Positions 8,577 to 40,258 of a DNA stretch of 56,227 nt are shown here, piece by piece; position 1 is the first letter of the stretch, and each line of letters starts with the position of its first letter. Source of the stretch: Psammoneis japonica (lineage: Eukaryota); contig QPGO01000211.1 in the NCBI GenBank assembly GCA_008632985.1, positions 62,001 through 118,227 of the forward strand, given 5' to 3'. The notes under the pieces were generated by a model. It had not been told where the DNA came from. It saw nothing but the letters and a program-made list of their open reading frames with translations, and did not search any database. A program made the translations under genes and the position numbers.

Positions 8577-8607
<31 letters not shown>

Positions 8608-9396: not shown

Positions 9397-9683
9397 CTAG
9401 AGAGCGTCCGCATTGTCCCAGGGAAACGACAGCCAAGACTGTGTGCCAATCAAGTTTGTTGTCGTGGGCACAGGAAAAGGGCAAAGGTCGGCGGTTCCGA
9501 AACCCAAGGTGGACGCACTAGGCAGAAAAGATAAGATACGATACGACGACAGCTGCAGCTCTGACATTTTCGAAAAGCTATTTTGACGTCGTATCGACTT
9601 TATCATAAATCTCGACACATGCTATAAATTTTTCGTCTTACTGGAACATACACCACTGCTGCAGATAATGGTCTACTGCGACC

Positions 9684-11599: not shown

Positions 11600-13290
11600 C
11601 CTGGTTTGTCGGGGGAAGCTGCTGCCCCCTGTGACCGTGTGCAACGGTGCTCATCAGCCAGTGGCACTCCCAACATGGGAGGTCTGTGATGTGTGAGCCA
11701 GTGGCGCCCGTGCCAAAGAGACATCCTCAGCCAGCAGGATGTGCTGCTGGTGAAATGACACATGTTCACACCAGGCGGGCAGTTGGAACAAAAGACCCTT
11801 GCCCCCCCCTGCAACCCTCCTCCATCTCCAGCTGGTCTCACACCAGCTGCAGAGGACAGCAGCCAATCTGCTCTTCTGCAGTGCGCAGACAGTGATTGCA
11901 GATCTAAAGTTTTTTAACACTGGCGGCAGGTCCAGCCAATTGACAAGTGGCCCACAGTGACAAAATTTGCTGCCAGTGCCTGCCATGTTTTGACCCAGTG
12001 CCCTCTTTTTGTTGCAAAACACAGTGGCAAAATTGACTCTGTTCCGCCCAGGTTGATGCCCAGATGACAAAGAACAGCTTTGCTCTGGCTCGTTCACGAA
12101 GTTTTGCTGTGCACACTTTTTTCATGATCCGTTGCCCTTTGAAGCAAATTGTTCCAACCTCAGCTGCCAAATCTTGTGTGGCAACTGAGACAAGCAAAAG
12201 CAGCTGCAAGCTTTCCCTTTTCTCTCAAATTTTCAAGGGTGGTTGCAGGCTGAGCATTCCTCCATGTGAGTTGCCCAGTTTGTGAGGGGGGCAACGATGT
12301 TCCCAAATTCCCAATGAGTTTGATTTCGGCAGGCTCTCGGCCCATTGCTCTTGTTGTTGTTGGGGTGACCATGCCGCTTTCACACACAGGACAATGCACA
12401 AGCAAGCTCAGCAAGCTTGACCTTTGAGGGTGTTGGATGCTGTTGAAACAGAGAATTGCCAGGTGTTGTTGCAGAAAAAGAAGATTAAACATGAAATGCA
12501 CTGGCGAGATGAACAAGCATTTGCCAGATCTTAACTTTTGTGCCAGGAGCCACAGCTCACTTCTGTGTGCTGCACAATGTGTGATGTGGTTTTTTCCAAC
12601 ATGCCAGCATGATGAAACTTGACTGGACTGTGAAACATGCGATGCCCCAACTTGTCGTTTGTGTTGCCATCCTCACACAAGCACCTGGGTGCAATTCAAG
12701 AGATGACATGCTGATGGGATTGGCTGAGATGCAGTCACCAGGAAGCAGTGCAAAAGATCAAGCTGAGGAGAGCTCTCATCCAGTCATTCTGGAGATGGAG
12801 ATGGTGTTTCCCTGCTGCCAACGACCTGCAGATGGAGTTGGTGGGCAAGGGCATCCAAGGGCAGTTCTCCCCAACAAGAAGTGTGCTTCTTTTTCTGTTA
12901 AAAATTGCAACCTCCAAGAGTTCCATGAGTGTCTCCCTTGGGTGTGAGCATCTCATGACCAACCAATTTGCCACTCACTGGAATCCAAGAAAATGGTGCC
13001 AGCAGCCACCTCTGCAGTCCACACTCTCTGTGTTGGAAATGCACACCCATCCTCCTGTGCTTGGGTCAGCAAAGACAGCTGCCCGTTCTGCTGTCCACAA
13101 GCTGCCAATGTTCTCGCCTCAATGCAGTGATTCTAGCCACCACCCCATTTGAGAGCAGCAGACCGTTTTTGGCTGTTCCAGCTTGGCCGGGCGATTGCGT
13201 CAACCGCAGAATCATTGCCACTATGGCCACAGCATTGCACAGCTTGTGTGAAATTTTTGAGTGGAGAAATGAGGCCTGTTCATGTGTCAT
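11600..13290. repeat. TpA-void, CpG-poor tract (probable decayed TE remnant)
   Basis: Six TpA in 11601-13200, all in YTAR context; no intact ORF; termini not identified. Confidence 0.6.
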
Positions 13291-13427: not shown

Positions 13428-16400
13428 CTAAAGATTCTGTGTTCTCGGGAAAGCACCACAGTGGAAAGCACATGTCTTCCGCAAATTTTTGTGCCATTCC
13501 TTAGTGCTGCGAAAGCGTGAATCCAACGTAAGAAAGGACAAGTCATCAGATTCCATGGAGGTTGTAGAACGAACCGTCACGTCGCTCAAGGGCACACCTG
13601 TTGGAGACTTCTTGTAAACAAGAGGTGGGCACATTCCCGACTCTGCAGGTTTTTCAGGTTCTATGCAAGGTTCATTCTCAAGAACAGTCGAGAGCGGTTG
13701 TGGTTTTACCGGGCCCTTTCGACGAGGATTCAACGATCCAACAGAAGTCAACCACTTGCGCATGCTTTTTCTGCTTTTACTCCCGTTCCTCGCGTCTCGT
13801 TCGGAATTTTCCTCTACCTCGTTGCTTGGTGAACTTTCGATGACGACTTCTACAGGTGCACTTGACATGAGATTCTTGGTGCTGCAGACTTCTGAAATCT
13901 CATTCGACGATGATTTCTTCGCAGTGGACGATGAAGCCACACCTCCCCGAGAAATGTCATTGCCTGTTGTGCATAAAACGGTGCCTTTTCTGGCATTTGC
14001 GCCATCTGCACTTGGTGTGACATCGATGCCAAACTCACACAGACCTGCCGTTGTGTCAATTTGTTGCACCGAGATGTTCTGCTCCTTGAGATGAGAAGAG
14101 TTGTCGTCATGAACCACCCCAAGCGCAGTGGTGTCAACAACTTCGCCGCGGTCAACCTCAAAGCCAGATTTGGGGAAGGTTGTGGTGGAATGGTGGTCAT
14201 TCGTCTGATTGTGCTCCCCCAAATCACCCCGGGAAATGCTTTTCCGTTCGTTTGATGCAAACGCATCATCACCCACAACGGAAGTGGGACCATTGCGCGC
14301 AGTTGAGCCAGTGCCTGGCTGGTCCGAATCTTGCGAACCAGGGCGAGTAAAACACTGGCTTCCGTTGCTTGCCGATTCGGCGTCGCGCCCAGAACTGAAC
14401 GACATTGAATCCAGATTAGCTTCTTTAGCTGCGCCGAGTGGTACGGAAGAAAAGAAGCCGTCGTAATCGGACTCCTGTTGCTCCGATGATTTGTCCGCTT
14501 TGGCCGGTGCAGCTTCGTCACCTAGAGAATTGCCATGGTTCGCGGTGCATTCAACAACCTCATTGCTTGTGGGAACATCTGCGCCATCGACACTTGGCGT
14601 GATGCGTGGAGCTAGTGACTGGTCAGGCCCCTGATCAGAGGCCTCGTGAATCTTGGGCTTAGCACCGTCGTCTATGTCCTCTCCAAACGCAACACCATCA
14701 TCGCGGTCAATCTCAAAGCAAGCTTCGGGCAAGCCTGTTGAGAACTTGTCATTTGCATGGTTCAACTCAGCTACATCACCCCGGGAAACGTAACTCCATT
14801 CGATTGACTCAAGCCCATCATCATCCATGACGGATGCAGGACCATCTGGGGCAGCTGAGCCAGTGTCTGGCCCTTGCGCACCAGGCAGAATTAAAGCAGA
14901 CGCAACCCGCTGGCTTACTTTGCCTCCCGCCACTGAGGCTTCACACCCAGAACTGAACAAAAAGGAACTCACAACGGCTTTTTCAGCTGCGCCCAACGGT
15001 GTGGAAGCAGAGACTTCATCATCCCCAGACTCCTGCTGCGATGATTCCTTCGGGCTGGGCGATGCAGCTTCGTCACCCTTGGTCCTGCCGCGGTCTGTTT
15101 CAGCGACATCATCCCTCATTTTCACATCTGTGCTGTCGACACTTGGTGTGATGTCGATGCCAATTTCGCATGAAGCTGGTGAATGGTCAATCCGCTCCAC
15201 AAGGGCGCTGCACTTCTTGGGATTGTAGCCATGGTCGTGAACCTCCGCAAGCGCATTTGTGTCGACAACCTCTTCGTCACGGCCAATCTCAAGGCCAGCT
15301 TCGGGTGTGGCAGATGCCAACTCGTTGTCATTTGTTCGATCCAACTCATCTGATGCAGCTCCCTGGGAAACGCCGTTGCGCCCGATTGATGACACCACAT
15401 TGTCGCCATCCTCAAGTGTGACATCGATGCCAACTTCACAGGGACCAAGCATCGGATCAACCCCTTGCACAGAGGCATTGTGCTTCTTGGGATTGTAACC
15501 CCCGTTGCGAACAAACCCAAACGCAGTTGTGTCGACAACCTCATCGCGGTCAACCTCAAATCCAGCCTCAGACGAGGCTGTTTCCAGCCGCGTGTCACTC
15601 GTTCGATTCAACTGAGATGCAGCTCCCTTGGTGGAGTCATTCCACCCACCATCATCAGCCACATTACCAGATGCAGCACGTGTGACCTCATCCGTGTGTG
15701 CACCGGCGCTGTTGGACACTCCAATGTCTGAATTGCTTGGCTCTTGAGCGTTCAGGTTGGAAAACGCCGTTGCAATCCATTGACTTAATCCACTCATCTT
15801 CAGTGATTCGTCACTTGACTCATGCGCGTTGCCTTGCGGTGCAATTGGCCCCGTGGTGCAATGGGCTTCTGATGGGCTTGTTTTCGGTGATTTAAATCCA
15901 GACAGCACAGTTGCAAGCCATTGATTTTGTTTGCTGGCATGCCAGGATTCAATGCTGTCATCGACAACCGGTGACGAGTAAATTTCGTCTGAAGCTTCGT
16001 GTCCTTTTGAGATTTGCAGCAAAGCCCATTCATCAACTTGTTTGTTCACTCGTGTCGCGCTTTCATGAGCGTTGCCTTGTGTTGCACTTGGCCGCGTGGC
16101 GTTGTGGGCTTCTGACGGGCTTGACTTCGGTGATTGAAGTCCAGACAGTGCAGTTGCCAGCCATTGGCTCTGTTTGCTGGTTCCCCAGGATTCAACGTCT
16201 TCATCGACAACTGGTGCCGAGTGACCTTCGCCAGGAGCGTCATCTCCTTTTGAGATTTGAAGCAAAGCCCCTTTATCACCCTGTTTGTTCGCTCGCACCG
16301 TGTCCTCTTGCGCTTCCTTTTCCAAAGCAGAAGGAGTTTCGGACGCACTTGGTTCTGGCAAACGATGCGTCTTGTCTGCTTCTTGACCCGCCTCAGTCTT

Positions 16401-18490
16401 TTCAAACACAGGACCAATGATGTTGGGGAACAGCTTGGACATCATTGAAGACGGAGCAGTCTCCTCCTTTTCTTCGGTTGGTTCAATGTTCTTGACGATG
16501 CTTTTCGATTTAGACGCAGTGATCTTGCGTCGGGCTTGCACCGCTACGACAACCTCTGCTTGGACAAAGAGCTTTGCAATTCCACTTGATCTCATTCCCC
16601 TGCAGTCAACACCATTTGTGGCCAACAACTCGTCACCGGCCTTCAGAGTTTTGGAGAACATCCCACCTTCGATAACGCGGGAAACCATCAATTGTCCACC
16701 GGAAATTCTCTTTACAGAAATGCCACTTTTGGACGTCTTGGCTTCTTTGAGGGCAATGGCTGCGATTTTCTGGTGGGAAGGTTGATCTTCGGGTTCAACA
16801 CGGCTTGGATTCACTGGATTGCCCAAAGGCGGCGCTCTGCACGATCCAAGTCTTGCCAGCGACTTTGATCCAAAAGAACGCATCTTTGATCGTTTCTTCA
16901 GCAACATCTGGAGCGATTCATTGCTGCGCTCAATCTTGAGCCCCTGATTGACTTCCATGGAGTTCACTTTGCCACTTGATTTCGAGCCATCATCGCCCAC
17001 AATCGTGTCGGGCGCCTTCTTTTTCTTCCACCTAAAAGACGACCTTGCTCGAAATGGGAGAATTCCCCGTTCTGCCTGTGCGGAGCTTGTTGCGAATCCG
17101 AATCGATCACAATTTCGTGTCCCGCCGCATCAGCAAGGCGGTCGAATTCACCATCCCGTTTCGGCTGAGATGTGTTACGAGATTCGTCTTCCTCGCTCTG
17201 TCCTCCGCTCGCCTCTACCGGAGCATCACTCTTGTCAGTGTCGCTTGGTCCTTGGCTCCCAGAAATGCCTTGGTGAACGCTCGCTTCAACACCTTCATCC
17301 AAGACACATGGCTTGTCTTTGGACGTCGCAATGGCTGCGGTTTTCTGGTGGGAAGAGTGATCTTCGGGTTCAACATGGCTTGGATTCGCTGGATTGTCCA
17401 AAGACGGCGCTCTGCGCGATCCAAGTCTTGCCAGCGACTTAGATCCAAAAGAACGCATCTTTGATCGTTTTTTCTGTGACATCTGGAGCGATTCATTGCT
17501 GCGCTCAATCTCGAGCCCCTGATTGACTTCCACGGAGTCCACTTTGCCACTTGATTTCGAGCTGTCATCGCCCACAATCGTGTCGGACGCCTTCTTTTTC
17601 TTCCACCTAAAAGACGACCTTGCTCGAAACAGGGGGATTCCCCGTTCTGCCTTTAGCGGAGCTTCTTTCGAATCCGGATCGATCACAATTTCGTGTCCCT
17701 CCATGTCATGAAGGCGGTCGAATTCACCATTTCGTTTCGGCTGAGATGCACTGCGAGATTCATCTTCCTCGCTCTCTCCTCCGCTCGCCTCTGCCGGAGT
17801 GTCACTCTTGTCAGCACCGCTTGCTCCTTGGCTCCTGGAAACACCCTGGTGAATGCTCGCTTCAACACATTCATCCAAGACACATGGCTCGTCTGGCTGT
17901 TGGAATGACTCTTCATCAATGTTTGACAGCTCACTGTTTGATGGAGGCTCTGAGTTCACGCTGCGATCTTTCTTCCTCTCCAAGGCAACATCCCGTTTCG
18001 GCCGAGATGCATTGCGAGATTCGTCTTCCTCGCTCTCTCCCCCGCTCGCCTCCACCGAAGCATCACTCTTGTCGGCATCGCTTGCTCTTTGGCGCCCCGA
18101 AACACCCTGGTGAACGGTTGCTTCAACACCTTCATCCAAGACACATGGCTCGTCTGGCTTTCGGAATGACTCTTCATCAATGTTTGACAGCTTGCCATTT
18201 GGTGGAGGCCCTGAGTTCACGCTTCGAACTTTCTTCCTCTCCAAGGCAACAACAACCGTCGCTTCGTTGGGCCCCTCTCCTGGTGCTTTCTCCTCCGTCA
18301 GGGGAGACGAGTCATGCACCAGGCTTTCGATCGATGAGTTGTTGCTGGTGGTCGTACGCTGCTGCATTTCTTGGGAAAGCAGAGGCCAGGTCGTCGCTTT
18401 TGTGGCGCTCAGATCACACTGAGCCCCACTCACCAAATAACAATCAACCTCCTCTACTTCCGATTCGTCGTTCCCTCCTTCAATCGTCAT
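13428..18490 (-). CDS. Large internally repetitive protein with a PDZ-like domain; one frameshift near 17078
   Basis: ORFs 16964-18490 and 13428-17000 are joined by a 1-nt deletion visible against the duplicate copy (ttctgcctttagcgg at ~17645 vs ttctgcctgtgcgg at ~17070). PDZ-like segment KSGISVKRISGGQLMVSRVIEGGMFSKTLKAGDELLATNGVDC lies at ~16520-16770. Several internal repeat modules are present. Confidence 0.7.
16760..18250. repeat. Recent intragenic duplications (about 540-600-bp and 240-bp offsets) within the PDZ gene
   Basis: KPCVLDEGVEA...ASGGESEEDESR module x3, ALERKK..SVNS..LSNIDEESF x2, and GDDSSKSSGKV...RSFGSKSLARLGS x2; near-identical at the nucleotide level. Confidence 0.9.
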
Positions 18491-18899
18491 CGTACAGCAT
18501 CAGATGAGCATCCCGCCGTCGCCGTCTGCTCATGAGTTTATGAGCTTGCCGAATAGCCGCCAAAAACCTTTCCGTTCAAGATAAATGTAATAATTCGAGA
18601 TTAATTTTAATTATAAGTTATTAACATCTATGATTACTAATAATATGATCTTAGAAAATTTTTGTCTCTATCAAAAATATAGATGAAATGTTTTTTCAAA
18701 AAAGTCATATTCCTATAAGAGCTTTAGGATAACCAATATTTCCCCCAACGTAAACCTGTCCCGGGTGGACGAACAAAGGTCTGGCTGTGCGTGCGTGGCG
18801 GCGTGGGCATCCTTGTGAGTCGTCTACCGGCACATCCGAACAAACAACAAAAATCAGCATCATTCCCACTCAAGTCTGCTCTCTGCTCTCTCTCTAGAG

Positions 18900-21050
18900 A
18901 GACTGCAGTGCAGAACCATCCCGCACCACACACACTGGCCCAGCACGTGGCACTGGAGCCATTGTCAAGTCATGAGAAGTGTTTCTGAAAACGGCCACAG
19001 ACGCCCTGGAAGCACCCTCACAAAAGCACCGCCACTCCAACAAACAGCATGAGCACGCTCCAGCATTAGAGGCGGGTGCTAAACCTGGAGGACCTCAAAT
19101 GTTGTTGCAGTGCAAGCACCAAACAGCTGNNNNNNNNNNNNNNNNNNNNNNNNNNNNNNNNNNNNNNNNNNNNNNNNNNNNNNNNNNNNNNNNNNNNNNN
19201 NNNNNNNNNNNNNNNNNNNNNNNNNNNNNNNNNNNNNNNNNNNNNNNNNNNNNNNNNNNNNNNNNNNNNNNNNNNNNNNNNNNNNNNNNNNNNNNNNNNN
19301 NNNNNNNNNNNNNNNNNNNNNNNNNNNNNNNNNNNNNNNNNNNNNNNNNNNNNNNNNNNNNNNNNNNNNNNNNNNNNNNNNNNNNNNNNNNNNNNNNNNN
19401 NNNNNNNNNNNNNNNNNNNNNNNNNNNNNNNNNNNNNNNNNNNNNNNNNNNNNNNNNNNNNNNNNNGGGGGGGGGGGGTCTTGCTTGGTGCACCAGCTGC
19501 AGAGCTCATGCACCAAATTTGGCCACCAGAAAATGGCCCACTGAGTTTCCCAACTGGAAGCTGTGCCAGGATGTGCAAGAAGTCTTTCAGCAGCAGCTGT
19601 TGTTGTTCTGTGGAAACATGTGAGATCACAACAAAATCTTGAGGAATGCACTCTGAACTTCCTCAGGACAAACACACATTTGCTGGAAAAGAGATTGTCT
19701 TCCATGTTGTTCCCAGTGCCAAGAGCCTCAAGCTGCTGTCATGACACACTGCCACCCAGACAGACACAAAAACCAGGGCTGGGTTGACAAAGGAGTTGCC
19801 AAGATCAAAGATCAAAGAATCCAAACAAAAGGCATTCAAGTGCATGTGGGAGCTGTTGGAAGCAAAAGAGAGCATTTCTAAAATTTCAAGCAAGTTTCAG
19901 CAAAAGAGGCAGTGGGGCTGTTCTTGGGGCTCTTTGGTGCATGGTGTTGCTTTTCAAAATTGCCAATGCAAACACCACTGCCCCTCAGAAGGTGCCAGCA
20001 CTTTCCCAGCAGTTCAGGGGGGCTTGACCAGCTCACACAAAACACTCGACACACATCAAAAATGAGAAGTTGAATCAAAGTGCAGGAAAATCAGACAATC
20101 ATGCAAGGCTGTGACCTGCCAGAATGCCAATGGATGACAATGGAAGTTGGGAAAAGAGGCTTCCTCCTGAGTGCTGGGAGACAGTGTGACACATCTGGTG
20201 GAACAGAACAAACAAAAAGATCTCACATGGATGACTCAAATGTCCAAAAGGTTTCTGGCTGTCATGCACAAATTTGGTCTGTTTGCTGCATCCCCTGCAG
20301 ACTCAGTCATGGGCTGGCTTTTCATTTTTTTTGTGGCTCAGGTTCTTTTGGCTTTGTGAGTGGCAGCTGAAAACACAGCTGCGCTTCTTGCGGATGGAAT
20401 GACAGCGCTTGTTGAGTTTTTGTCAGAGCGAAAGCACTGTTGTGAAGAAGTTGCAATGGAAAATGGTCGGGATGTTGGACCATGGAGCACTTGAGTTAAT
20501 CAACAATGCATGTTGCAGAGAATCGAAATTGTTCATCACACTGCATGACTCTTGCAGCTCTGTTGTTGGCTTTTTTGTCAATTTTCCTGCCATGCCCCCA
20601 GAAGGAAAAATCCCACAAGAATCTCCCAGAAATCAAAGGATTGCATCAGAAGCAGCGTGCCACAAAGCACAATGATGCCGCTGAACCAAATGCACATTTC
20701 AACGCTTGCAAGTTGTCACCTTGTGCTCTTGCTCTGCCAACCAGCACACACTGGTGCTGCTTGCAAGGTGGTGTGTTGGTTTTGACTGGGTCCTTGAACC
20801 CGAATCACAACCTGGTGAGGCTCCCTTCTCTCTTTATTCTCCTTCCTTCCATTCCCTCTCTCTTTTCCTTTTCTTCTTCTCAGTTGTCCTTTTTGCACTT
20901 CAACATCCAAATCCAAAAATCTCACGGGGGGCGCTTGAAAGCTGAGTGATGGACACCACGCACAGACGGGCGACGGACGACACGCGGCGGAAAAATCTCG
21001 TGTCGTCCCGCGAGGATGATGATGATTCATTCCAGATGATTCGCCATTCG
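18900..21050. repeat. TpA-void tract spanning an assembly gap (probable decayed TE remnant)
   Basis: Three TpA in 19467-21080; CpG sparse up to ~20900; no intact ORF. Confidence 0.55.
19130..19466. other. Assembly gap (N run)
   Basis: Run of n characters followed by a poly-G tract. Confidence 1.
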
Positions 21051-21111
21051 CCATCAACCCTCCATTTGCCTCCATCGATCTTCCTATTTTCGAAGCTTTT
21101 CAATTGTTCAA

Positions 21112-23758: not shown

Positions 23759-24233
23759 GCTGGAGCAGCTCTGGCGTGGGAGGTAAATTACCTTGCTCTA
23801 AAAAAAAAAAAACCTGCTGGTGCTTCCAGGCACACTCTGCCGCAGCACTTTTTGCGCTGCACCACATCATTTTATCATTTTGCACCACAAAGAGCTCAAC
23901 TCCTGCTGCACTGTTTGCTGGAGCAGCTCTGGCATGGGAGGCAAATCACCTTGCTCTAAAAAAATCACCAGCAACCTGCTGGTGCTTCCAGGCACACTCT
24001 GCTGCAGCACTTTTTGCGCCACACCACACCATTTTGTCATGTTGCACCACAAAGAGCTCAGCTCCAACTGCACTGTTTGCTGGAGCAGCTCTGGCGTGGG
24101 AGATAAATCACCTTGCTCTAAAAAAATCAACCTGCTGGTGCTTCCAGGCACACTCTGCCGCAGCACTTTTTGCGCTGCACCACATCATTTTGTGTCGTTT
24201 TGCACCACAAAGAGCTCCAATCCAACTGCACTG
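23759..24233 (+). repeat. Tandem array of three ~160-bp units at the start of a TpA-poor tract that runs to ~24780
   Basis: Units start gctggagcagctctggc at 23759, 23917 and 24079. Confidence 0.95.
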
Positions 24234-24865
24234 CTTGCAACTTTGCACCCCCATGTTGGGAGCCCCATTGTAACTTTTTGGCGCAGATCGGAGACCAATG
24301 AGATGCAGTGGTCTGTGCCTCCCCCCTGTGTGAGTGGGGGGTTGTTTTTGCGATCTGCTTTGCGACGCTGCTCACATCGCAGAAGCAGTGCATGAGTCTA
24401 CAAGCACCATTTGAGTCACAGCAAACTCACTCTTTTTCTTCATCAATGTTGCACTGCACGTTGATGAGACGAGAGAGCGAGTTTCGTTTGCAGCCTGCAC
24501 AGCCCACCCTTTGCGGCTCTCCAGCCAGAGCTCCAATTCCTGGTCCCCGGAATGGGAGCCCTCTAGCTCGAGGTCTGGTGCTCGTGGCCCATTCCACAAC
24601 CAACCAGAGTGCTCGACTAAGAGCGCATCAGACACGAGAGGAAGCAGAGTCGGCGAGCGACAAAGAGCAATCGACAATCGACACATCGATTGTCATGAAG
24701 TGCAGGTTGCACCGTGGGTGTGCGCGCTCCCACTCTCTGCACTCCCCCCGCCCTTGACAACTTCAACTTGCCCTCAAAAATAGATGTTCTCACCGCGCCA
24801 TGACAAAAACGCTTAGGCAAGTTCGTATTTCGTAACCTTACTGTGTTCTGAACATCTTGATTTTC

Positions 24866-29374: not shown

Positions 29375-29579
29375 GCTTCAAACTGCTTGAAGAAGAAAAA
29401 ATGAGATGAGTGCAATAACGGAAGTGCTGGGCCGAGGCCGAGATTGGCACCCCCCTGAAACTTCCCTCCGTTGTTGTCGTCTCGCCTTTCTCTGGGTGCG
29501 ACTTTTTTGACGGAAGTTTCAATCGTGGAAACAGAAGTGGTCGTGCCTTTCGTGGATATTCTACATGGCGAGTCTTATC

Positions 29580-30260
29580 CATGACTGAAACACATTCCGC
29601 AATGAGCCTCTGACGCACGCAAGAAAGAAAACGTCCGTCCGCGCACCAACCAAAAGCCAATCAACACCCACTGCCGGCCAATCGACCTGAAGCCAACCAA
29701 TCAACGAGCAGCCTCGTGACACATTGCCATTAACCGTGTGAAACTTTCTTCCTGGCATTTCACCGGCTTTGTTTGCAACACGCCATCATCATCATTGTTC
29801 CTTTTGGAGTTCTGCTGCTCGGTGCGGGCCTCTCCTGCACGTGTGATGAGCGAGCACACACACACTGCGAGCAATGGCGCAATTGCCGCAAGAAGCAGTC
29901 TGACATTGTGCCCATTGCCCCATTGCACTGGTGCAGTTTTCAAGGACAAATGACAACCAAGCACAACAAGTGTGCTGGAGACAGTGATGCCAATTTTTGC
30001 AGCTTTGGTTTTTTCAGGAAAGATGCAAAAAAGAAAAGCATTGGAAAAAAAGCAGCGACAAAGCCAGCTTGCTCATTGCTGTGGCACAGGAGCATTGCCA
30101 CATGTCACTGCATGAAACTTTCTCCATGGCATGTCACCAATTTCTTGGCAGCATTGTGTGCTTCATCATTGTTTCCTTCAGGTGTCAGCCTGACACACAC
30201 AACATGACACAAACACAACATGACACAACAGCTCGTCGCAACATGTGCTCAGAGTGCACA
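29580..30260. repeat. TpA-void flank of the retroelement, with a degenerate internal repeat
   Basis: One TpA (TTAA at ~29730) in about 680 bp; tgaaactttct..tggcat.tcacc...catcattgtt occurs at ~29739 and ~30113. Confidence 0.6.
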
Positions 30261-30708
30261 GATCCGAGCATGGACTCTGCAAACCGCCGCTTCGGACTGG
30301 ATCTCGAACGATCCTAGTCAAGAACCACTGAGAAGTGACAAAACATTGGGGCACTTAGGAGACTCACAGAACAGAGCTTTCGGCACAAGCTCTGCTCCGC
30401 ACAAGGGGGGACGGGAAAAACCCAAACCCTCCGCAGGGTCCTGCACCAGCACAGGGGCTCTTCCGGAAAACCAACGCAGCACTGATGCCTCGGGCGTTTT
30501 CGAGGGCCAAACTCTAGCATCGCACCCTTTGGCATTTTGCGACATTGGGTGCAAACTAGAGTGCAATCGGCCAACTCGAACGAAGACACGCCAGACCAAG
30601 TTTTCCCGCACGAAAGCCAAAGCTGTCGAAGGTGTTGTGCTGCACAGTTGTCTTGGACCTCGTCTCATCGACTCCCGAGGCCCAATGAGATGAGTCGAGC
30701 TCCAATCC
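30261..30708 (-). repeat. Split direct repeat B2 (3' terminus)
   Basis: About 447-bp direct repeat of 30973-31419. Confidence 0.95.
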
Positions 30709-30727
30709 AGGGTGTGGGGGGTGGGCA

Positions 30728-30973
30728 AAAAAGAACAATGCTTTTCCGAGCTTGAGTGATCCAGTCACGTTGATCAGGGTTCCTGTTCCAACAAAGCTGG
30801 AAAAGTGAGAGAAGAGAAGACCGAAGTTTGACCGGTCACAGTCAGGAGACTAGACCAAGTCATCTTGAGTCGGAAGCACCCTGCTTCCGACATGGATTGA
30901 GCAAGGGGTCACAGTCACCAAGCGGGGTTGGCTTGAGTCAGTCCATCTCCATCTAAACTTGGGTGCGAGGAGG
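30728..30973 (-). repeat. Split direct repeat A2
   Basis: 246-bp direct repeat of 40013-40258. Confidence 0.95.
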
Positions 30974-31419
30974 ATCCGAGCACAGACTCTGCAAACCGCC
31001 GCTTCGGACTAGATCTCGAATGATCCCAGTCAAGAACCACTGAGAAGTGACAAAACATTGGGACACTCAGGAGACTCGTGGAACAGAGCTTTCGGCACAA
31101 GCTCTGCTCTGCACAAGGGGGGATGGGAAAAACCCAAACCCTCTGCAGGGTCCTGTGCCAGCACAGGGGCTCTTCCGGAAAACCAACGTAGCGCCAATGC
31201 CCAGGGCGTTTTGAAGGCCAAACTCCAGTGTCGCACCCTTCGGCATTTTGCGACGTTGGGTGCAAACTAGAGTGCAATCGGCCAACTCAAACGAAGACAC
31301 GCCAGACCAAGTTTTCCCATGCGAAAACCCAAGCCGTCAAAGGTGTTGTGCTGCACAGTCATCTTGGACCTCGTCTCATTGACTCCCGAGGCCGAACGAG
31401 ACGAGTCGAGCTCTGATCC
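30973..31419 (-). repeat. Split direct repeat B1
   Basis: Direct repeat of 30261-30708, abutting A2. Confidence 0.95.
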
Positions 31420-31532
31420 CCCCGATGAGAATCCTGGGCAGTGGCCACCAAACATGATGATCCAGAGAGCAGGAGGATGGAGGACTGCTCTCCGGGGACC
31501 TGACGTCACCAAGGGCTTGAGACCATCCCAAA

Positions 31533-33199
31533 TCACATGGCCTTGGTGCAACGCAGGAATGAGGGTAAAAGAAGGGTGATGTCGGCACAGTGTTGCCGCA
31601 TTTTATGTGTGGGCCGTGCCGCCCCCGACCTTTCCTTCTTTTTCCACCGGTTGATGACATCAATGTCATCTTCCGACACCTTTTGAGCAATGGCACGTGA
31701 GTCAGATCCCCTCCTGAACAACCAACTCACATCACATTTGTCCTGCATGTCAGTGAGGGAAGTGATGTCTGCTGCGAATGAGCTTGGGTGGTCATCATGG
31801 ATGTCTCCCAAGACTTCATGCAAGAAAGCGTTGAGCTCTTTAGTGGACAGGGACCTGTCCATCCACATTTGATGTCGCTGGTCCACGCGTTTGCCGATGA
31901 CCCCAGTGCAGTGAGATTGCTGTTTCCACCCAAAACCGAAGGTTGACACCTGAGCTGGCAACGTTAACACTGGGGAGGAGGAGGCGGCCGCTCCCCATGC
32001 TCTCCCTTCACCCGGCCTAAAAGAGGGACCACAACACACTCCGCATGTCTTGGCAGATGTTTGACCACAGCACCCAAGTCTGTGAGCAAACCTTCGGGGC
32101 CCCGAAGGGACAAGACGTAGCTTGCTGCAAAGTGCAATCTGCATGTGAGGTGCACAAATCTGTCCGCCTCCCCGGGGGCTCAAAGAGCCTTCTCCTCGAC
32201 CCGAGGCAAAAGATGTTGCATGACATCCACTGATGTCGCCCTGTCGGGCCTCCAGTCTTGACCCATCCGTCTCTTGCACCCAGTCATAAAACGTTGGAAC
32301 CACAGCGAGGCTCGCGGGTCCTCGCATGTCCGAAGACACAGTTTTCCTTCCAAGTCCCCCAATGCTAAAGCACGTGAGTTCGCCTGCGCTGAAGCGCGCA
32401 CCTGATTGGAACAAGCGGCACGCAATTTTCGGATTGTGTCAAACTGGGTGCAGGACTCCAAGTGTTTCCCCGCAGCCGTCAATGCCAAGATGATCTGCAT
32501 CGCGACCTTGCACCCACAGTGATCACAGGGCGGGAGAGGACCTGGTTCGAGGTGAGGGCCTGTCAGGCCCAGACGCTCGGATGAGACTGGGCCCCTTCCA
32601 ACTCTCGATGCATTTGCTTCAACCATTGTTGACTCCCTGCTCCAAAACGCGTCCAAGATCACCCGTCGAACACAGGCCAAGGCAACCTCGTCCCGAGGTG
32701 ATGATGGCAAAGGTTCCCTCTGGTGTGGCTTGTGAAATGCACAGGAGTCACACTCAAACGCCACCATGAGATGATCTCCTGCTCGAGCCCGCACGAATTT
32801 GTTTTTGTCGTGCGGCTTCCGATGCCACGCATTGTCGTCCAACCTTGGGCGGTCCGCCCTGAGCATTTGCGCATCGTCATTTTGAGGGTCGTCCGCCAGG
32901 GTCCCTCCTGGATAGAAAGTCACGCTTTCTCGCGAAGCACAACACCCTGGACACCACACCTTCCGACATGCCGGCCAGATTCCTGCATTGTGCACAAAAT
33001 TTGTGCAGAACATTCCTTTCGTCCACCGTAGCATCCGGCCACACTTGTCGCAAGGACCGGTCCATGGCACACATTTTTGGGGTCCCCCGAAGCTGCCAAG
33101 GGCTGCAGGAAACAAACAGAAAAAGGAGGCTGATTGGCAAGGGCTCGAACACATCACCTGGCCAGAACGGTCTTGATCCAGCCGGAATGGTGAACACAA
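31533..33199 (-). pseudogene. Tyrosine recombinase of the retroelement (frameshifted)
   Basis: ARAGDHLMVAFECD, ILDAFWSREST, QFDTIRKLR, KRRMGQDW, FRRGSDSRA, IDVINRWK and MRQHCAD (position of the catalytic Tyr), spread over two frames. Confidence 0.85.
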
Positions 33200-36050
33200 G
33201 GTCCGCCGCCTTGCACAACTGCTTCTGCCACTCCGGTGTCATTAACGTGGGCAGATGAACATGTGAAAAGATGTCTGACATTTGATCCTCGTGATCCGGA
33301 GCTCTTCCAGGGCCATTCTCGCCGCGGCTGGGGGCCGGGCCCAAACCCAAGTGCCTGCATTGAAACAGGGCATTTCGATTGCCTTGTGATCTGGGTGACT
33401 CCATCCCGCAATGTCATGTCCCTTCTGACACCAATCCAAGGGGGTCAGCAGCTCCGGAGGCGGGGCACCAGCCCAAGATCAAACCCACGCGAGGAGAGCA
33501 GGCGACCAAGCTGTGGCTCCGAGATGGAGAGGGACAAACGACAACATCTTGGCTCCGTTCATAGCCCCTTCGGACAAGACTCCCCTGGAGACTCCATCCG
33601 TGCCCTGAGCTGTCATCCGCCCCCCCCGAGACGTGCATGAGGCACAGCCTAATCCCACACTTGGCCTCTAAAGATTTCAACCAAACAATCTGCTCAAGCA
33701 GGAGGGGACTGGAAGAGGCACCCTTGTGCCATGCCATCTCGGCAACCGAGTTGTCCATAAAGAAGAACAAGCACGCGCCGGTCAATTCCCCCTGCTCTCC
33801 AAGTTCCTGGATGGCATCGACCGCATTGGACAATTCCTTCCAGTTTGATGAGTTTCCTGGTTCGTCCTCGCCCCACACACCAATCCAAAAGATGATTGTT
33901 CCATCCGATGCTTCCAGGGACGTGCCGAGGCCTTTTCTGGATGCATCGCCAAAACCGCAAAGGACAGCGACGATTTTTGAAGACCTGATGATGACCGCAG
34001 CAGGGGTCGGAGACTCCACAATGCGGGACACAGCTGTTGGGTCCATAAAAAGACGAGGGACCGCCTTGACCTGCTGAGGTGGCGGCTGATCCCTTAGCCC
34101 ATCTGCAACCTCTGACGGGTCTGGGCCCTGCTTCTCAGCAAGATGATGAATCCAACTCGTGAACTCTTTTGCCGTCATTGCCCAACCATCCTCCTTTCGG
34201 TTTGGGTGCCACGAGTCAAGGGTCAAATGGATCCCTTTCAAGAGTGGTGTTAGAAAAGAGTGAGTCATCGCAAGGTGGACCAGAAACCCCCGCTTCCACT
34301 CCAGATCCTTGAAATTAAAAGTGGGGAGAAAGCCCTCCGGCCAACCAGCATGACAACCAAGCAAATCGGCAATGATGACCTTGGCTTTGTCCCATTTGGC
34401 CTGAGCAACTGACTGGGTGACATCCCCATCGATAACTCGGAAGATGGCGCCAGCCCATGCTCTGGTTTTCACCTGAGAAGGGGGGGGCGCACCTTTCGGG
34501 CAGCGTTCTGGAGACCAAGATGCTGCAAGCGGGAGGCCATTTGGTGAGCCACTTGCCATGAGGATTCCTCGCTTGCCCCCATTCCCCGCAAGTCATCCAC
34601 AAATGTTTTGATGTCCCCAGCAATTTCCTGGCGACGCAAATTCCACTTCATGACAAACGGTTTTTCCACCTGGAAATTTGGGTCACCCGGCAAGTTTAGG
34701 ACCAGCTTGTTGTGCCCCGCAATGTTGGAGACTCGTTTTGGATCGCCTCGGGCAATCTCATTGGCCCAACAGAATGCCCGCACCGCCAGGTGAGGGCTGG
34801 GATGCATCCCCACAAACAAACGGTTCCAACACTTGAACCAGAGTGGGCCCGCCGAGACAGGCTCCAGCGACAGGAGACACGCCTTGAGCGGAGTTAAGGC
34901 AATCACACAACGAGCTGATGGATGGCAAGACGATTGGACTTTCTGAATTTTTTTTGTGCTGGAAACTTCGTGCGCGCTACACGCATCATCGCTGAAAATC
35001 GGCGACATGACGGTGGTGTGTTGTCATGACGACAACGATGACAGCGACGTGTCCCAGAGTCTTTTGTCATCACAGACATTTAGTTTGTTAAGTTTGAGAA
35101 TGCACTCAGTCATGAAAGTCCCCGAGAGCAATCTCCGTTCGAAAGCAAAACGTCACGCCAATGCCGAGCTCTGTTTTCCGACCTGTCACTGTTGTGCATT
35201 CATTGTTGACGATTGAGACTTTGTCAGGCGGACTTTCTGTGCATGTGCGTGTTCCATGCAGTGCAATTGATCATTGTGACAAGTGCCCATTTCAAAGTCG
35301 TCCTGTGTGAGCTTGAGAAAAATGCCATTGTCATCGTCGGCGTCGACGGCAATTTGTCGCGCAAATCGCAAAAAATGCACGACTGTCATCTGTCTGACAT
35401 TGCGCTGCTGTGCGCTTGTTGTGCGCATGCCTTAAGTCAATCCCCGCATGTGGCCGGATGTTGGGATCCATGAAAAAATTTAAGAACATGTCGCCCAGAT
35501 CGAGGTCCACCGAAAATGTCGAATGGGTCATGCACCCCAGAACTGACGCGGGAGTGGGCAAGAAAAAGGAGGGGGCCCACAGGGCATCATCCAACCCAGA
35601 AGAAGTGCCATTGTGAACCATTTGCATGTCCTTGACGATCTCCACCAACCGACCATTCTGGGGTTCCACTCGGACGGTTTTTGGGACCCAGAAACAATCT
35701 GTTGAGCTGATCACCCCACCTCGATGGATGCAACCTTGGTCTTGGACCTTTTGCACTTTGTCCGCCATCCTGCCAATCTCATGCTCTGAACCCCGAATTC
35801 GCTGGCATCGGCGATTGCGAGGGAGGGGACCTTTGACAAAAATCTGGATCCCATCCCGAGCCCCAACCCACTGTTCCAGAGTGGGCCATCGCCAAAATAG
35901 AAGGGATGAACCTCGGCCCCAGCTCCACCATGAACTGCCCAATGCTTGTGTCAACACATCCGCCCCAAGGTGTGCGTCAAGCAGCAAGGATGGGAGTGGA
36001 GGGTGGCGACAAACCCCCCCTGAAGATGCCCTGTAGCATCCCCAAAATGC
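32877..36050 (-). pseudogene. pol: reverse transcriptase, RNase H and DIRS-type MT-like domain (frameshifted, MITE-interrupted)
   Basis: RT motifs DLDLGDMFLNF, WNRLFVGMHPSP and KTFVDDLRG; RNase H motifs GFGDAS, SSNWKELSN and FFMDNSVAE; then WVWARPPAAA...FICPR/LMTPEW. Confidence 0.9.
34898..35431. mobile_element. 534-bp MITE-like insertion in RT, flanked by TTAA
   Basis: TTAA at 34894-34897 and 35432-35435; imperfect TIR GGCAnnCRCACAACRAGC; removal restores the frame AGIDL|TPLKAC. Confidence 0.9.
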
Positions 36051-37203
36051 CGACGTTGTGCAGCCAACATGGCGTCCCACGTCAGCCCATGTTCCCGGTG
36101 CAGGCATGCTAGAAAGGACCGAAGAGTCCTCCACCGCCACCATCGGTGGGCCAAGTCCCGAAGGGCAGGTAAAACCTTTCCAAACCCCGGGAAAACCAGA
36201 GCAACCCGCTTGTCCCAAAGCCGAAACGGAGGCGCCGCTGCATCACCCTCAGTGGCTTTTGCAGTCATGAGAGACACGTCAATCCATGTGTGCGGCAAAT
36301 GCCGCCGAAGCCCTGGCAGCCAAGTCCCAGCCCCACGAAGCGGAGCTGCGGCCACCGTGTCTCCACCAACCACACGCCCAGGTCGCGACGATTCCCGGGG
36401 TGTGTGATCAACGAACGCCTCCACAAAAAGAGTGAGAAGATTCAACGGGACCAGTGAAAAACCATGCTCGAAAGCGCGATGCACCTGAGGCGTGCGGAAA
36501 TGCAAAGGGAAATCCCAGGCCGCCAATGTCTCATCCACAGAGAGTGTGCGGGAGACCCAACCTGTCACAGACTGATGAGACGGGTGCACGACCGGTCGAT
36601 TCAAAAACTGAGGGTTGAGGTGGTTGGCCTCCATGTAAAAATCACCACGGGGGTGTTGGGGTGATGGCGACCCGGGGAGCTTGCAATCAATGATGTGCCC
36701 GATGGACCGTCGCAGCCCACCGTCAAAAATCAGCGTGGGTGCCCCTTGCCAGAACAGGGTCGTTCGGAAGAAAGTGACACCGCCCACCACCGCATGTGCA
36801 ATGTCCCGTCGCTGGAGCTGGTGCAGTCCCAGGAGGCTTGGTCTTGAAACCGCTCCCACAGGGATCACAATCAAGGGTGCCGACCGGATGATGTGCACTG
36901 CGGATTCAAGGAATGAGGGTGGCCCCGACACAAACACAATGTCAACCCGGACAGCGAGTTGTCCCACACTCGTCCAAGAGACCCGTGCCAAGGAGGCACC
37001 CAACTGGCTCTGGAACAACTCCACCAACAGGGGATTCCAGTGGGAGCTGGAGGTGTCATCGCAGCAGCAGCAAAGGACAAAAGCCAAATTGGGGGACCGG
37101 AAGCAAGAACCAAACAAGTTCCTTGAAATGAGAAGGCTTTTCGGCCCCGCATGATGTGCCTCAGGTTGGCAGGCCCATCAACAGAGACCTCACCCTCCCA
37201 CAA
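35951..37203 (-). pseudogene. Degenerate C5-cytosine methyltransferase-like domain at the N terminus of pol
   Basis: VDIVFVSGPPSF (motif IV-like, no Cys), HAVVGGVT..R (VIII-like), RSIGHIID and RTLSVDETLAAWDFP (IX-like), in canonical order. Confidence 0.5.
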
Positions 37204-37224
37204 TTCTTCTGCTCCCCATGGGCT

Positions 37225-39999
37225 TCACTTCTTGTTCTCCAGAGCCTTGAGTCGGCGAGTCAGGTCCTTCACCTCCCCGTCCGCAATTTTCCCAGCTCCA
37301 CGTGAGCCGCATCGCCTCGAGCCTGGGCTGATTTTGCCTCTGAGCTGGCATTTTTGGCTTTCTCCGTCAACGTCAGGACAGTGGATTGCAAATCCGTTGC
37401 CACTTCGAAACCTGAATTTGTCACGAGGAACTTGACACATTCCGACGCCATCGAGGGGTGACCGACGAACCCCAGAGACGTGTGCTCCACCATGATGTCC
37501 TGGGTTCGAAACACCACCCACAAAATTTTGCTGCACACTGCGTCTGGGTCCGTGCCCGAAATGGAGGTGAAGACCCCTGAGCGCGCCTTGTGAATGTCCT
37601 CGAAGATGCGGTGAGTCAATTTGGTGGTCAAGGACCATGCTTGCTTCTTGGAGAACTTGCTCAGATCGGTGAGTGACGCGCAAGTCGAGTCCATGAACTG
37701 AACCAGTGCCCGCAAAAAGGCAACCGTTCTCCGTCGTGGCGATCTTCCCTTCGATGAAGTGCTTTGTCCCCACATTCCCAGATGACCAATGTTCGTGAGT
37801 CTTGACCTCATCCAAGTGGGAGGGATGCAACCCCAAGGTCTGAGTCGATTTTGCAGATCCTGAGTCGAAGATTCAAGGCATGCGGCATTGAAAACCCGCC
37901 AAGGTTCGCGCATCTTCCTCAGTCGCGATGTTCACACTCATTCGCTTTGCCCACTGGGATGGAAAGTGGTGCAGGGCCGTTGGCTCGATTCCTTTGATCC
38001 GATCCAAGAGTGGGACGGTCAAACATCCACAAGCCTGCGACGGGAGAAGTGTTGCGTCATCCACGCCTGGCAATCCTCGTAGGACGATGCGCCGACCCCC
38101 GAGAACTTGACAGCTGATTTATCCGATTTTGCGCGTGGCTCGCTCAGACGCGTTCCAGGTCTAGGTGGGACCTCGCACCACTGAACTGTGACATCGACAG
38201 TTTTTTGAATCACGTCATGTGTCGCGCACGTTGATTTCTACGTGATTTTTTCGACATTTTGTGTCATTTTACGGTGCACTCATTGAGCGATCCGTCCAAC
38301 TGCTTTTGACATTTTTTGTTACAGCGCGATTCTATGATGTCTCGAGAATCGCGCAGGGAAGGCGCACTTGCAAAAACGTCGAGTGGCAAGAGGCATGATT
38401 GTGCCACAAACTTGGCCGTTCATTTGATGTTGAAGACAAATGTGTCCATTGATTAAATTCTCGTACAATGGAGCTCGCACGTAGAATTCTACGGGCCCAA
38501 TGTCACACGGAGTCCCCCACCTGGGGCTGGAACGCGTCCTCACTGCCTGATCCAGTCGGGTGAGCCGTGCATCCACAGATCCTTGGTCATGCGAAACACC
38601 TGGTGGCGAGAACCCCGCGGCTCCCTGTGACTCCAACGACCTCACCTTTGAGGCCAACTGCATGCAAACCCGAAGCATGTTTCTCTTCAAGTTTTCCAGG
38701 TCCATTCGGCTCGCTGTGGATCCCATCTGGTCTTGCATCCCTTGGAACTTCTCGTTGAACGTTCTCACAAGACGGTTGGATTGGCTTCTCCAGCCCATTT
38801 CCACTTGCGTGATGCGGCCCACAAGGTCTGTAGATGGAGTTCCAGTTTCCCAAGATGCCACGTTTGCCAAGGTGCCCCATGGCGTGGGCGCAAGGAGAGC
38901 CTCGTCAAACCCCTGAGTCGGAGTCCCGAGAGACGCATCGAGTTGGTCCAGTTTGCGGCTGAGAATGTCAACCATGGACTCTGCAGCATTGGAGCGCTTT
39001 CCGGCCTTGTCACCCAGTTTGGCTGGAACCTCTCCAACTTGCCGCAGTCCATCCTTGGTTGATTGCACAACCTGAGCCAACACAGATGGGCTCTCATTCG
39101 CCGCCAGGAACTGAGCAGGAGTGGAGAGAATTTGTTTTTCATGTGGAATGAACCCCTCCAGGACGGCGTCTTCGTGAAGGGAGGCAGGTTCTGGCCACTC
39201 CTTGTGAGCCGGTGTCTTGAAATTGGCCACCCTTTCATGCTCCTTCAGAGCTGGTTCAACCTCGTCCTCAGTGAAAAAGGGAGGTTCACCGTTGGATGGC
39301 ACCAAGAACTTTTGCCGCCATCCGGCTGGGGTGTCTGACTCCGGTTCCCACTTAACTGACACCTCGCCCGACATGCTTCCTCCATCTAGGATGGGTTGAC
39401 AAAACCCCACATCCGGTGACTTGAGAATTGCTGCCATCCCCGCCGCCAGGATGTTCATCCTTCCACCCTTGTGCTTTACATTGCACTCACTTGCCTTCTT
39501 GAGGCAGAAGGTGGCGCCCCCGCCCTTGATCCCTGAGCATCGAGGTGCGCCAGTCGTCTCCAGCCAGGTGATCCGACAACGAGACACGTGCAAGGACAAA
39601 GAAGACGCACCTTCCTCAAGCATGCTCCAAATGTCACCCGCTAAATCCCGCCCAAAGAAGCCCACCCGAGAGGAGTGAGCTTCCCTCTGAAATGTGTGGG
39701 ACGCGTCTCCTTCCAAAACGTGAGTTCCTGGAGAGTGGGAAATGACTTCCCCCAACTCCGCCCTGTCAATGTCCGATTGGGGATGACTGTAACCCCCCAA
39801 AATGTCCTTGCTTGCACCTCGGGGATTTGAGCCCTCATGACCCCCCCCCCCCCTGTTGCGCAGCCCCAGAGGGGCGAGCCTGAGGAGAGGGAGCCGCAGG
39901 AGAGCTCGACGAGAACGGCGAGATGACATCAGACTCCAGCTGATGAGCCAAATCGACGAACGCATCATCAGAGATGCCCTGGGCAAAGAAATCTGACAT
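37225..39999 (-). pseudogene. gag-like ORF1 (frameshifted, MITE-interrupted)
   Basis: Starts at ATG 39999 just inside repeat A1; Cys/His cluster RCSGIKGGGATFCLKKASECNVKH and coiled-coil segments; positioned upstream of pol. Confidence 0.75.
38147..38538. mobile_element. 392-bp MITE-like insertion in gag with 4-bp TSD CTCA
   Basis: TIR GACGCGTTCCAG(g/c)(t/c)C(t/c)AGGTGGG at both ends; CTCA at 38143-38146 and 38539-38542; removal restores RLDQAV|SEPRAKSDK. Confidence 0.92.
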
Positions 40000-40012
40000 G
40001 ATGAGAGAGACT

Positions 40013-40258
40013 AAAAAGAATGATGCTTTTCCGAGCTTGAGTGATCCAGTCACGTTGATCAGGGTTCCTGCTCCAACAAAGCTGGAAAAGTGAGAGAAGA
40101 GAAGACCGAAGTTTGACCGGTCACAGTCAGGAGACTAGACCGAGTCATCTTGAGTTGGAAGTACCCTACTTCCGACATGGATCGAGCGAGGGGTCATAGT
40201 CACCGAGCGGGGTTGGTTTGAGTCAGTCCGTCTCCATCTAAACTTGGGTACGAGGAGG
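40013..40258 (-). repeat. Split direct repeat A1 (5' terminus)
   Basis: 246-bp direct repeat of 30728-30973. Confidence 0.95.

Follow-up and report, generated by a model that had tools for sequence, protein, structure and literature searches.

Loss of TpA from a tyrosine-recombinase retrotransposon and repeats of the diatom Psammoneis japonica, consistent with A:T to G:C hypermutation

We analysed a stretch of 56,227 nucleotides from the diatom Psammoneis japonica (assembly GCA_008632985.1, contig QPGO01000211.1, positions 62,001 to 118,227; hereafter the window) that holds host genes together with tracts from which the dinucleotide TpA has nearly vanished. One such tract covers a tyrosine-recombinase retrotransposon that is degenerate and frameshifted and belongs to a multi-copy family; the element lies on the minus strand at 30261-40258 and has a TpA observed/expected ratio (O/E) of about 0.11. 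From comparisons with related elements and between repeat copies inside the window, we propose that a DNA-level process confined to such tracts converts A:T to G:C at 5'-TA-3' on both strands in this diatom, and we give this reading a probability of roughly 0.78.

The element was delimited by its repeats and by homology. Read along the minus strand it consists of X1 (40258-40013), the open reading frames (ORFs), Y1 (31419-30973), X2 (30973-30728) and Y2 (30708-30261). Self-comparison found X1, the 5' end of the element, to be 94.3% identical to its internal copy X2, and the internal copy Y1 to be 90.2% identical to Y2, the 3' end. Ngaro/PAT-like retroelements of the DIRS order carry split direct repeats in the arrangement A1, ORFs, B1-A2-B2, and we take the layout found here to be of this type. 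The likeness extends to the relatives of the element, which carry gag-like, probable reverse transcriptase (RT) plus RNase H, and tyrosine-recombinase ORFs; these ORFs measure about 550 aa, 1330-1380 aa (ORF2) and 500-550 aa (ORF3) in intact copies. In the window tblastn located their remnants, all on the minus strand, at 37305-37811 for the gag-like ORF1 (matched by the first ORF of relatives, about 540-580 aa), at 32904-36943 in several frames for ORF2 (main pieces 35331-36242, 34469-35023 and 33414-34592), and at 31533-33238 for ORF3, which encodes a tyrosine recombinase whose N-terminal domain is Cys-rich.

The assignment of these ORFs came from clusters, profiles and a structure model. 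The ORF2 core adjoins atlas clusters that carry RT_RNaseH as well as RVT_1 (the latter in 67%, 28% and 92% of their members), with scores of 0.95-0.96. An ORF2 profile searched against the PDB gave weak matches to Moloney murine leukaemia virus (MMLV) RT near the YxDD region (E 0.16-0.44), and PDB sequence searches with single relatives gave no match. The family ORF2 consensus also contains motifs that we take to be of the YVDD and GFGDAS types. An AlphaFold model of ORF3 from the relative L012 (predicted local distance difference test score, pLDDT, 78) had XerH, Cre, lambda Int and SSV1 Int as its top Foldseek matches in the PDB (E 4e-4 to 1e-2). The model thus indicates a tyrosine-recombinase fold for ORF3 in the relative, to which the ORF3 remnant of the window aligns. 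Because of the RT/RNase H neighbours in the atlas, the MMLV RT profile matches and the matches of the ORF3 model, we regard the element as a tyrosine-recombinase retrotransposon. A further match in the PDB profile searches, 2vqc, was rejected as unrelated.

The family is very large, with 9331 representatives at E<=1e-3. A database search with the ORF of the RNase H region found 41 relatives, the closest at 44% identity, and EukProt gives the name Cylindrotheca fusiformis to three of these. We measured copy number as contig depth summed over the contigs of run X1 (a label distinct from repeat X1), which cover part of the window including 23.7-25.0 and 30.3-40.3 kb. Summed depth was 346-2420 in 12 ordinary bins of the element, against 48-126 in non-repeat bins, and 324-453 in a low-TpA tract at 23801-24500. 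The element family and the tract at 23.7-25.0 kb are therefore multi-copy in the genome. Pfam gave no significant match either to the broken ORFs of the element or to intact relatives, in which the family differs from the DIRS order. We note separately that a three-ORF tyrosine-recombinase family of this size, including L012, L026 and others, is recognised by no Pfam model.

Low-TpA tracts were called with a two-state model on 100-bp bins of the dinucleotide profile. We found seven tracts, about 20 kb summed, with a TpA O/E of 0.05-0.14, against 0.56-0.59 in five large normal segments; three short normal segments had values of 0.34, 0.44 and 0.77. This bears out an earlier reading made from the sequence only, which had described TpA as nearly absent from the element and normal in unique genes, and its list of further TpA-poor tracts agrees with the model except that most of 13.9-17.7 kb was missing from it. 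The element itself (30261-40258) contains 65 TpA, where base composition predicts 502 and the normal O/E of the window predicts about 286 (Poisson P 4e-56). Within the low tracts TpG and CpA were raised (O/E 1.27-1.80). The O/E of TC and GA was 0.74-1.31 and that of ApT 0.63-0.99, and AA and TT were not depleted (0.90-2.18 in 1-kb rows spanning the low tracts). In the element TG (797) and CA (858) occur in similar numbers (P 0.14), and its stop triplets number 45 TAA, 50 TAG and 395 TGA. CpG was also lowered in the low tracts (0.25-0.90); neither this nor the excess of TpG and CpA had been remarked on in the sequence-only reading.

The element has few Tyr codons. Its eight main overlapping stop-to-stop ORFs contain 8 Tyr in 2731 codons (0.29%), rather than the three or so counted earlier, while Tyr makes up 1.3-3.2% of 26 proteins from relatives and has a median of 2.46% over 146 proteins. 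As an outgroup we used the 80 best-scoring of 462 related metagenome loci, of which 444 ORFs were run by tblastn against the window. A column counted as conserved when 15 or more loci covered it and 60% or more of these agreed. None of the 14 conserved Tyr columns has kept its Tyr in the window, whereas 407 of the 546 conserved columns for other residues are retained (Fisher P 8e-9); an earlier pass with 41 proteins had likewise found 0 of 9 conserved Tyr retained. The window codons at the 14 columns are CAC (five), TGT (three), TGC (two), TTT (two), TTC (one) and CTC (one). Ten are thus CAC or TGY, with His and Cys in a ratio of 5:5.

Six His or Cys residues had been pointed out as replacing Tyr, and in the family alignment five of them stand on columns where most relatives have Tyr: the His of MVHNGT (Tyr in 15/17 relatives), PSPH (13/17) and LQHLG (11/17), the Cys of CGFGDAS (17/17), and QHCAD (20/20). 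The sixth, the His of RPHAGIDL, falls on an ambiguous column with 7 Tyr and 7 Phe among 17 relatives. In ORF3 the codon at 31587-31589 (minus strand) is TGT, encoding Cys, at a position where Tyr is invariant in relatives (43/43 loci and 20/20 aligned ORF3 proteins). No other invariant residue of the recombinase follows it, and this position makes it a candidate for the catalytic Tyr. Since this invariant recombinase Tyr has been lost, this copy of the element cannot be functional.

The outgroup also gives the direction of the change. TpA O/E was 0.40-0.77 (median 0.65) in the DNA of 80/80 related loci, and Tyr made up at least 1% of 145 of 146 further family representatives, a set that, like the loci, is biased towards intact copies. 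Had the relatives been equally poor in TpA, the depletion could have been a trait of composition, as the sequence-only reading had recognised; with all 80 loci TpA-normal that explanation fails. The comparison therefore indicates that the change from TpA to TpG and CpA is mutation and not composition.

The single representative below 1% Tyr is P0297, a protein of 1258 aa from an ENA metagenome contig with 0.64% Tyr. Seven conserved Tyr columns read Y, W, R, C, F, C and H in this protein, which keeps 17 of 21 conserved Trp and 30 of 38 conserved Gly. P0297 may come from a copy that was hypermutated in some other organism.

Repeat copies within the window offered a second comparison. Six repeat pairs were aligned over 2076 bp with 216 mismatches, and their aligned pyrimidine-purine (YpR) steps comprised 79 CG/CG, 28 CG/TG, 25 CA/TG, 21 CG/CA, 10 TA/CA, 7 TA/TG and 6 TA/TA. 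The copies do differ by TA/TG and TA/CA, as had been noted earlier, but these 17 sites are outnumbered by the 49 CG/TG or CG/CA sites and by the 25 CA/TG sites. CA/TG accounts for 25 of 49 adjacent double mismatches, with 0-4 in each of seven other double-transition classes, and 16 of the 25 belong to tandem repeats that are not part of the retroelement. By arithmetic on the YpR counts, uniform CpG decay would account for about 6 of the 25. The remaining 19 or so imply about 61 ancestral TpA in the 2076 bp, a share of 2.9% compared with 3.9% in the normal DNA of the window, and TpA conversion was modelled at about 70% per repeat copy. In the tandem pair at 16753-17894 there are 34 CG/CG steps and 9 changed CpG, yet 9 CA/TG sites. 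We conclude that the CA/TG pattern is best read as the footprint of an ancestral, hypermutable, self-complementary step that decayed separately in each copy.

The split direct repeats of the element give a similar picture. Their copies are 6-10% diverged, and after purines and pyrimidines are collapsed they are 99.1% (Y pair) and 99.2% identical. In the intact relative L026 a 300-nt repeat pair 3' of ORF3 has copies identical at 300/300 positions, so the divergence in the window arose after insertion. The outer part of X1, the last 125 bp or so of the element, keeps 6 TpA (40136-40249); at 40162, 40167, 40197 and 40249 the TA of X1 stands opposite CA, TG, CA and TG in X2.

Deamination of 5-methylcytosine has evidently acted here: CpG is low, 49 repeat sites are CG/TG or CG/CA, and conserved Arg CGN codons in the element have become TGG or CAA. 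Cytosine deamination is, however, unable to remove TpA, and the two losses part in both directions. The tract at 14801-18400 has a TpA O/E of 0.10 with a CpG O/E of 0.88, compared with CpG values of 0.25-0.39 in the small tracts, and several relatives (L044, L035, L043, L057, L066 and others) are CpG-poor (0.18-0.46) with normal TpA. Because of this near-normal CpG in one tract and normal TpA in CpG-poor relatives, CpG decay appears to run alongside TpA loss but decoupled from it. Judged from the same loci, methyl-CpG decay seems common in the family of the element, and TpA loss was unseen among the 80. Methylation of transposable elements (TEs) in diatoms has been described, and DNMT4 relatives occur in many diatoms (PMC9998398).

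The surviving TpA are not random with respect to their neighbours. We counted 4-mers in low tracts and in normal DNA with both strands pooled. ATAC/GTAT is absent from the low tracts (0, against 188 in normal DNA), and ATAT (2 against 202), GTAC (4 against 226) and ATAG/CTAT (5 against 131) are nearly so. Intermediate counts were obtained for ATAA/TTAT (12 against 208), CTAC/GTAG (14 against 193) and GTAA/TTAC (16 against 159), and the highest for CTAA/TTAG (24 against 117), CTAG (26 against 124) and TTAA (36 against 112). The order of loss is RTAY > RTAR/YTAY > YTAR, with RTAY erased and YTAR partly surviving, and all 6 TpA conserved in both copies of a repeat are YTAR. Such an order would arise if the A of 5'-T-A-pyrimidine-3' were favoured on whichever strand it lies.

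To our knowledge, hypermutation targeted to genomic tracts as a defence was known before 2026 only as C>T change, in repeat-induced point mutation (RIP) of fungi and in the action of AID/APOBEC. The findings resemble RIP in that transitions come near saturation, are confined to tracts of which at least some are duplicated or TE DNA, strike copies independently and leave dead elements beside normal genes. As described, RIP changes C:G to T:A, mostly CpA to TpA, and creates TpA and stop codons. Here the direction is the reverse: TpA is destroyed, to as much as about 20-fold below the expectation from composition, and stop triplets are removed.

The same signature has now appeared in a preprint on the chlorarachniophyte Bigelowiella natans (Mettrop et al., bioRxiv 10.64898/2026.01.13.699255, 2026-04-14), which reports TpA>TpG/CpA hypermutation of inserts of nucleocytoplasmic large DNA virus (NCLDV) and virophage origin. 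Of the 302 nuclear mutations in its mutation-accumulation lines, 231 were located in two viral inserts, and 230 of these 231 were A>G or T>C, all on TpA; the mutation rate was about 6e-7 and the effect was seen in 11 of 15 lines only. As a long-term footprint, RT and DDE domains were over-represented among coding sequences (CDS) low in TpA. The candidate enzyme put forward is an ADAT2-like deaminase. The words 'flanking', 'trinucleotide', 'CpG' and 'diatom' do not occur in the main text of the preprint, and its supplements may bear on sequence context.

As far as the preprint's main text goes, the two cases share A:T>G:C transitions at TpA that affect both strands and are restricted to tracts within an otherwise normal genome, and a footprint of TpA depletion with CpA and TpG enrichment, there including CDS with RT and DDE domains. 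The signature in the diatom is the one seen de novo in B. natans. The hosts differ, a rhizarian there and a diatom (a stramenopile) here, as does the evidence, which rests there on de novo measurement in mutation-accumulation lines and here on deduction from sequence. The main target in B. natans is a single-copy viral insert of 186 kb with mild depletion (Rho 0.45), and depletion here is near saturation (0.05-0.14); the targets here are a tyrosine-recombinase retrotransposon and repeats, whereas those in B. natans are viral inserts, tracts of non-host origin. Because the preprint shows TpA>TpG/CpA change de novo, this kind of process is already in print. The present analysis adds a diatom case, retrotransposon and tandem-repeat targets, near-saturation, the order of loss among 4-mers and a TpA loss that is decoupled from CpG decay. 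The sequence-only reading knew of no description in diatoms; on this narrower point our literature search agreed, finding no report of TpA hypermutation in a diatom in a coverage that leaves out most subscription journals.

We propose the following course of events. Conversion of A:T to G:C at TpA on either strand would yield TpG and CpA. It would be confined to the dead multi-copy retrotransposon, to tandem repeats and to other degraded tracts, near saturation inside them and with neighbouring genes normal. It would act after copies had settled in the genome, would strike each copy independently, and would run in parallel to, and separately from, methyl-CpG decay. Because such a process removes TAA and TAG without creating stops, elements would be killed by missense. 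The sequence comparisons establish the direction of change, the dinucleotide and its strand symmetry, and the confinement to tracts. The chemistry is probably, following the preprint, enzymatic deamination of adenine to hypoxanthine; targeting would operate through recognition of repeats or of silent chromatin, and the role would presumably be genome defence.

The main rival concerns the base that is attacked. A TET/JBP-type dioxygenase might oxidise T at TpA in silenced repeats to 5-hydroxymethyluracil (5hmU) and further products, with mispairing to G and T>C change. Oxidised thymine is mutagenic, and since TpA is self-complementary, modification of T and deamination of A cannot be separated by the sequence signature. 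A study of dinoflagellates describes 5hmU as marking TEs and silencing them, and cites older work that reports T to be replaced preferentially in TA and TC (PMC11572971); another dinoflagellate study found 5hmU to have no sequence preference (PMC11071213). The low tracts show no TpC effect in their TC and GA values, and on balance we hold thymine oxidation to be unlikely, although ahead of every other alternative. We think it improbable that the changes are a passive by-product of repair, in which an error-prone polymerase resembling DNA polymerase eta (Pol eta) misinserts G opposite T in methylated or heterochromatic repeats. Pol eta is known from the somatic-hypermutation literature to prefer WA (W being A or T), and CpG decay does co-occur in most low tracts, but the specificity here is for TA only, with AA and TT undepleted, and the separation of TpA from CpG loss at 14801-18400 and in the CpG-poor relatives speaks against this reading. 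The B. natans mutations of this type, all on TpA, argue in the same direction.

Editing of retroelement RNA by an ADAR-like enzyme, fixed by reverse transcription and inherited at insertion, would suit a retrotransposon, and the preference of ADAR for a 5' U is raised in the discussion of the B. natans preprint. Editing of the sense transcript would yield one product only, TA>TG on the coding strand, and we observed both products in equal or similar numbers, in the His:Cys ratio and in the TG and CA counts. Most CA/TG sites lie in tandem repeats beyond the retroelement, the split-repeat copies differ at such sites whereas those of an intact relative are identical, and DNA flanking the element at 29577-30260 is depleted too. 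RNA editing is therefore very improbable. Least credible of all is that no mutation took place and that the signal reflects the composition of the families, or else an artefact that arose at modified bases during sequencing or assembly. The TpA-normal outgroup and the lost invariant Tyr contradict the former. Long-read basecallers can miscall modified bases, but parts of the element such as 31668-32542 and 38489-39507 are matched by contigs of run X1 with 0 differences, and an artefact would not turn up as CA in one copy of a repeat and as TG in its partner. Two further ideas were rejected: GC-biased gene conversion, because only TpA is lost and ApT, ApA and TpT show no comparable depletion, and selection on TE transcripts, because the invariant recombinase Tyr and 14/14 conserved Tyr are gone.

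Several points weigh against the proposed TpA hypermutation or its link to repeats. The conserved Tyr columns number just 14, and choosing the best-scoring loci favours intact copies in the outgroup. The ancestor of CA/TG sites could have been CG at heterogeneously methylated positions, and three-copy parsimony was uninformative on this because of few sites and poor alignment. An underpowered check of the T-A-pyrimidine preference by the direction of change in the repeat pairs found a 3' pyrimidine at 4 of 6 TA/TG sites and a 5' purine at 4 of 9 TA/CA sites. The assembly and the contigs that confirm it may both derive from one sample; the sequencing runs that contain this DNA number just three, all of a single sample, and no RNA run was listed among them. 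The evidence for a link to repeats is from one 56-kb window, and of the three low tracts with depth data two are multi-copy and the third, the flank at 29577-30260, has a unique-like bin. Finally, a nested unit resembling a miniature inverted-repeat transposable element (MITE), about 1000-fold abundant, retains a TpA O/E of 0.35, so that copy number alone is not predictive.

This MITE-like unit was identified by its 23-nt terminal inverted repeats and by depth, and occupies about 390 bp at 38147-38538. Its summed contig depth was 67145 and 48934 in two bins, compared with about 60 on unique DNA, with loose contig ends at 38145 and 38516 and many different flanks. Over 38145-38516 the TpA O/E of 0.35 is accompanied by a CpG O/E of 1.30, and the unit contains just two TpA preceded by a purine. 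The unit has largely been spared by both TpA and CpG decay. Since a unique-like flank is depleted and an abundant unit only mildly so, copy number alone does not set the TpA effect; length, age or chromatin may be determinants. Thus the claim in the sequence-only reading of a separate, repeat-directed conversion of A to G at TpA divides in two. A process apart from 5-methylcytosine decay is supported by the 14 lost Tyr and the CA/TG copies, and that repeats as such are the target is only partly shown.

If TpA hypermutation is the correct reading, it reaches ordinary retrotransposons and repeats, beyond viral inserts, and the saturated footprint in a diatom suggests that it is widespread among algae of the stramenopile-alveolate-rhizarian (SAR) group. 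One might go further and suppose an old DNA-editing defence common to diatoms and chlorarachniophytes and thus SAR-wide, in which an enzyme acting on 5'-T-A-pyrimidine-3' attacks silenced repeats, TEs and viral inserts independently of cytosine methylation. We offer this wider idea as a tentative one and consider it rather doubtful; were it true, such a defence would kill elements by erasing Tyr along with other TA-containing codons and signals, at no point producing a stop codon, the mirror image of fungal RIP. The rule of RTAY over YTAR constrains the enzyme, and because diatoms are transformable the mechanism is testable. There are practical consequences as well. Loss of TAA and TAG leaves long false ORFs in several frames and on both strands, so gene callers would over-predict in TpA-poor tracts, and loss of Tyr makes domain searches fail on the proteins of the element.

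The low tract that covers the retroelement extends from 29601 to 40100 in the two-state model and includes adjoining flank. The flank outside the element (29577-30260, 684 bp) has 1 TpA (O/E 0.02), with a CpG O/E of 0.59 and a TpG O/E of 1.99. Its sole wholly contained depth bin (29672-30338) has a depth of 68.9, and one contig spans 29516-30339 with 0 differences. The flank may reflect spreading of the process past the edge of the element, or it may be an old unrelated fragment.

Among the other low tracts, those at 8301-9500 (TpA O/E 0.07, CpG 0.28) and 11601-13200 (TpA 0.06, CpG 0.25) have no recognisable domain. The tract at 18901-21100 (TpA 0.05, CpG 0.33) includes an assembly gap of 337 N at 19130-19466, and the TpA-poor and CpG-poor tract at 23801-24500 contains three tandem copies of a 162-bp unit. 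Pfam gave no significant match to ORFs of the low tracts other than those of the element and of the tandem-repeat region described next, a purine/pyrimidine-collapsed self-comparison found no hidden homology among the remaining low tracts, and an Rfam scan of the window had 0 matches.

The short tract at 13901-14400 (TpA O/E 0.07) belongs to an older tandem-repeat region, and the tract at 14801-18400 is made of tandem repeats and overlaps long orphan ORFs. This region, at 13428-18499, contains tandem units of about 575, 261 and 243 bp and is TpA-poor and CpG-normal. On its minus strand lie an orphan ORF of 1233 aa (13428-17129) and another of 511 aa. The orphan ORFs have one PDZ match (E 3e-6), and the ORF of 1233 aa had no homologue among 7997 scored candidates from the protein database. 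They may represent a host gene struck via its internal repeats, or a false ORF produced by the loss of TAA and TAG.

The host genes of the window identify a diatom and not Bigelowiella, which bears out the diatom host assumed in the sequence-only reading. They are long and intron-poor, and one encodes a DUF6824 protein. For an aspartokinase/homoserine dehydrogenase ORF the nearest eukaryotic atlas cluster is mainly Bacillariophyta, and a Vac14 ORF has its named relatives in Mediolabrus comicus (at 75% identity) and in Amphora coffeaeformis (at 53%).

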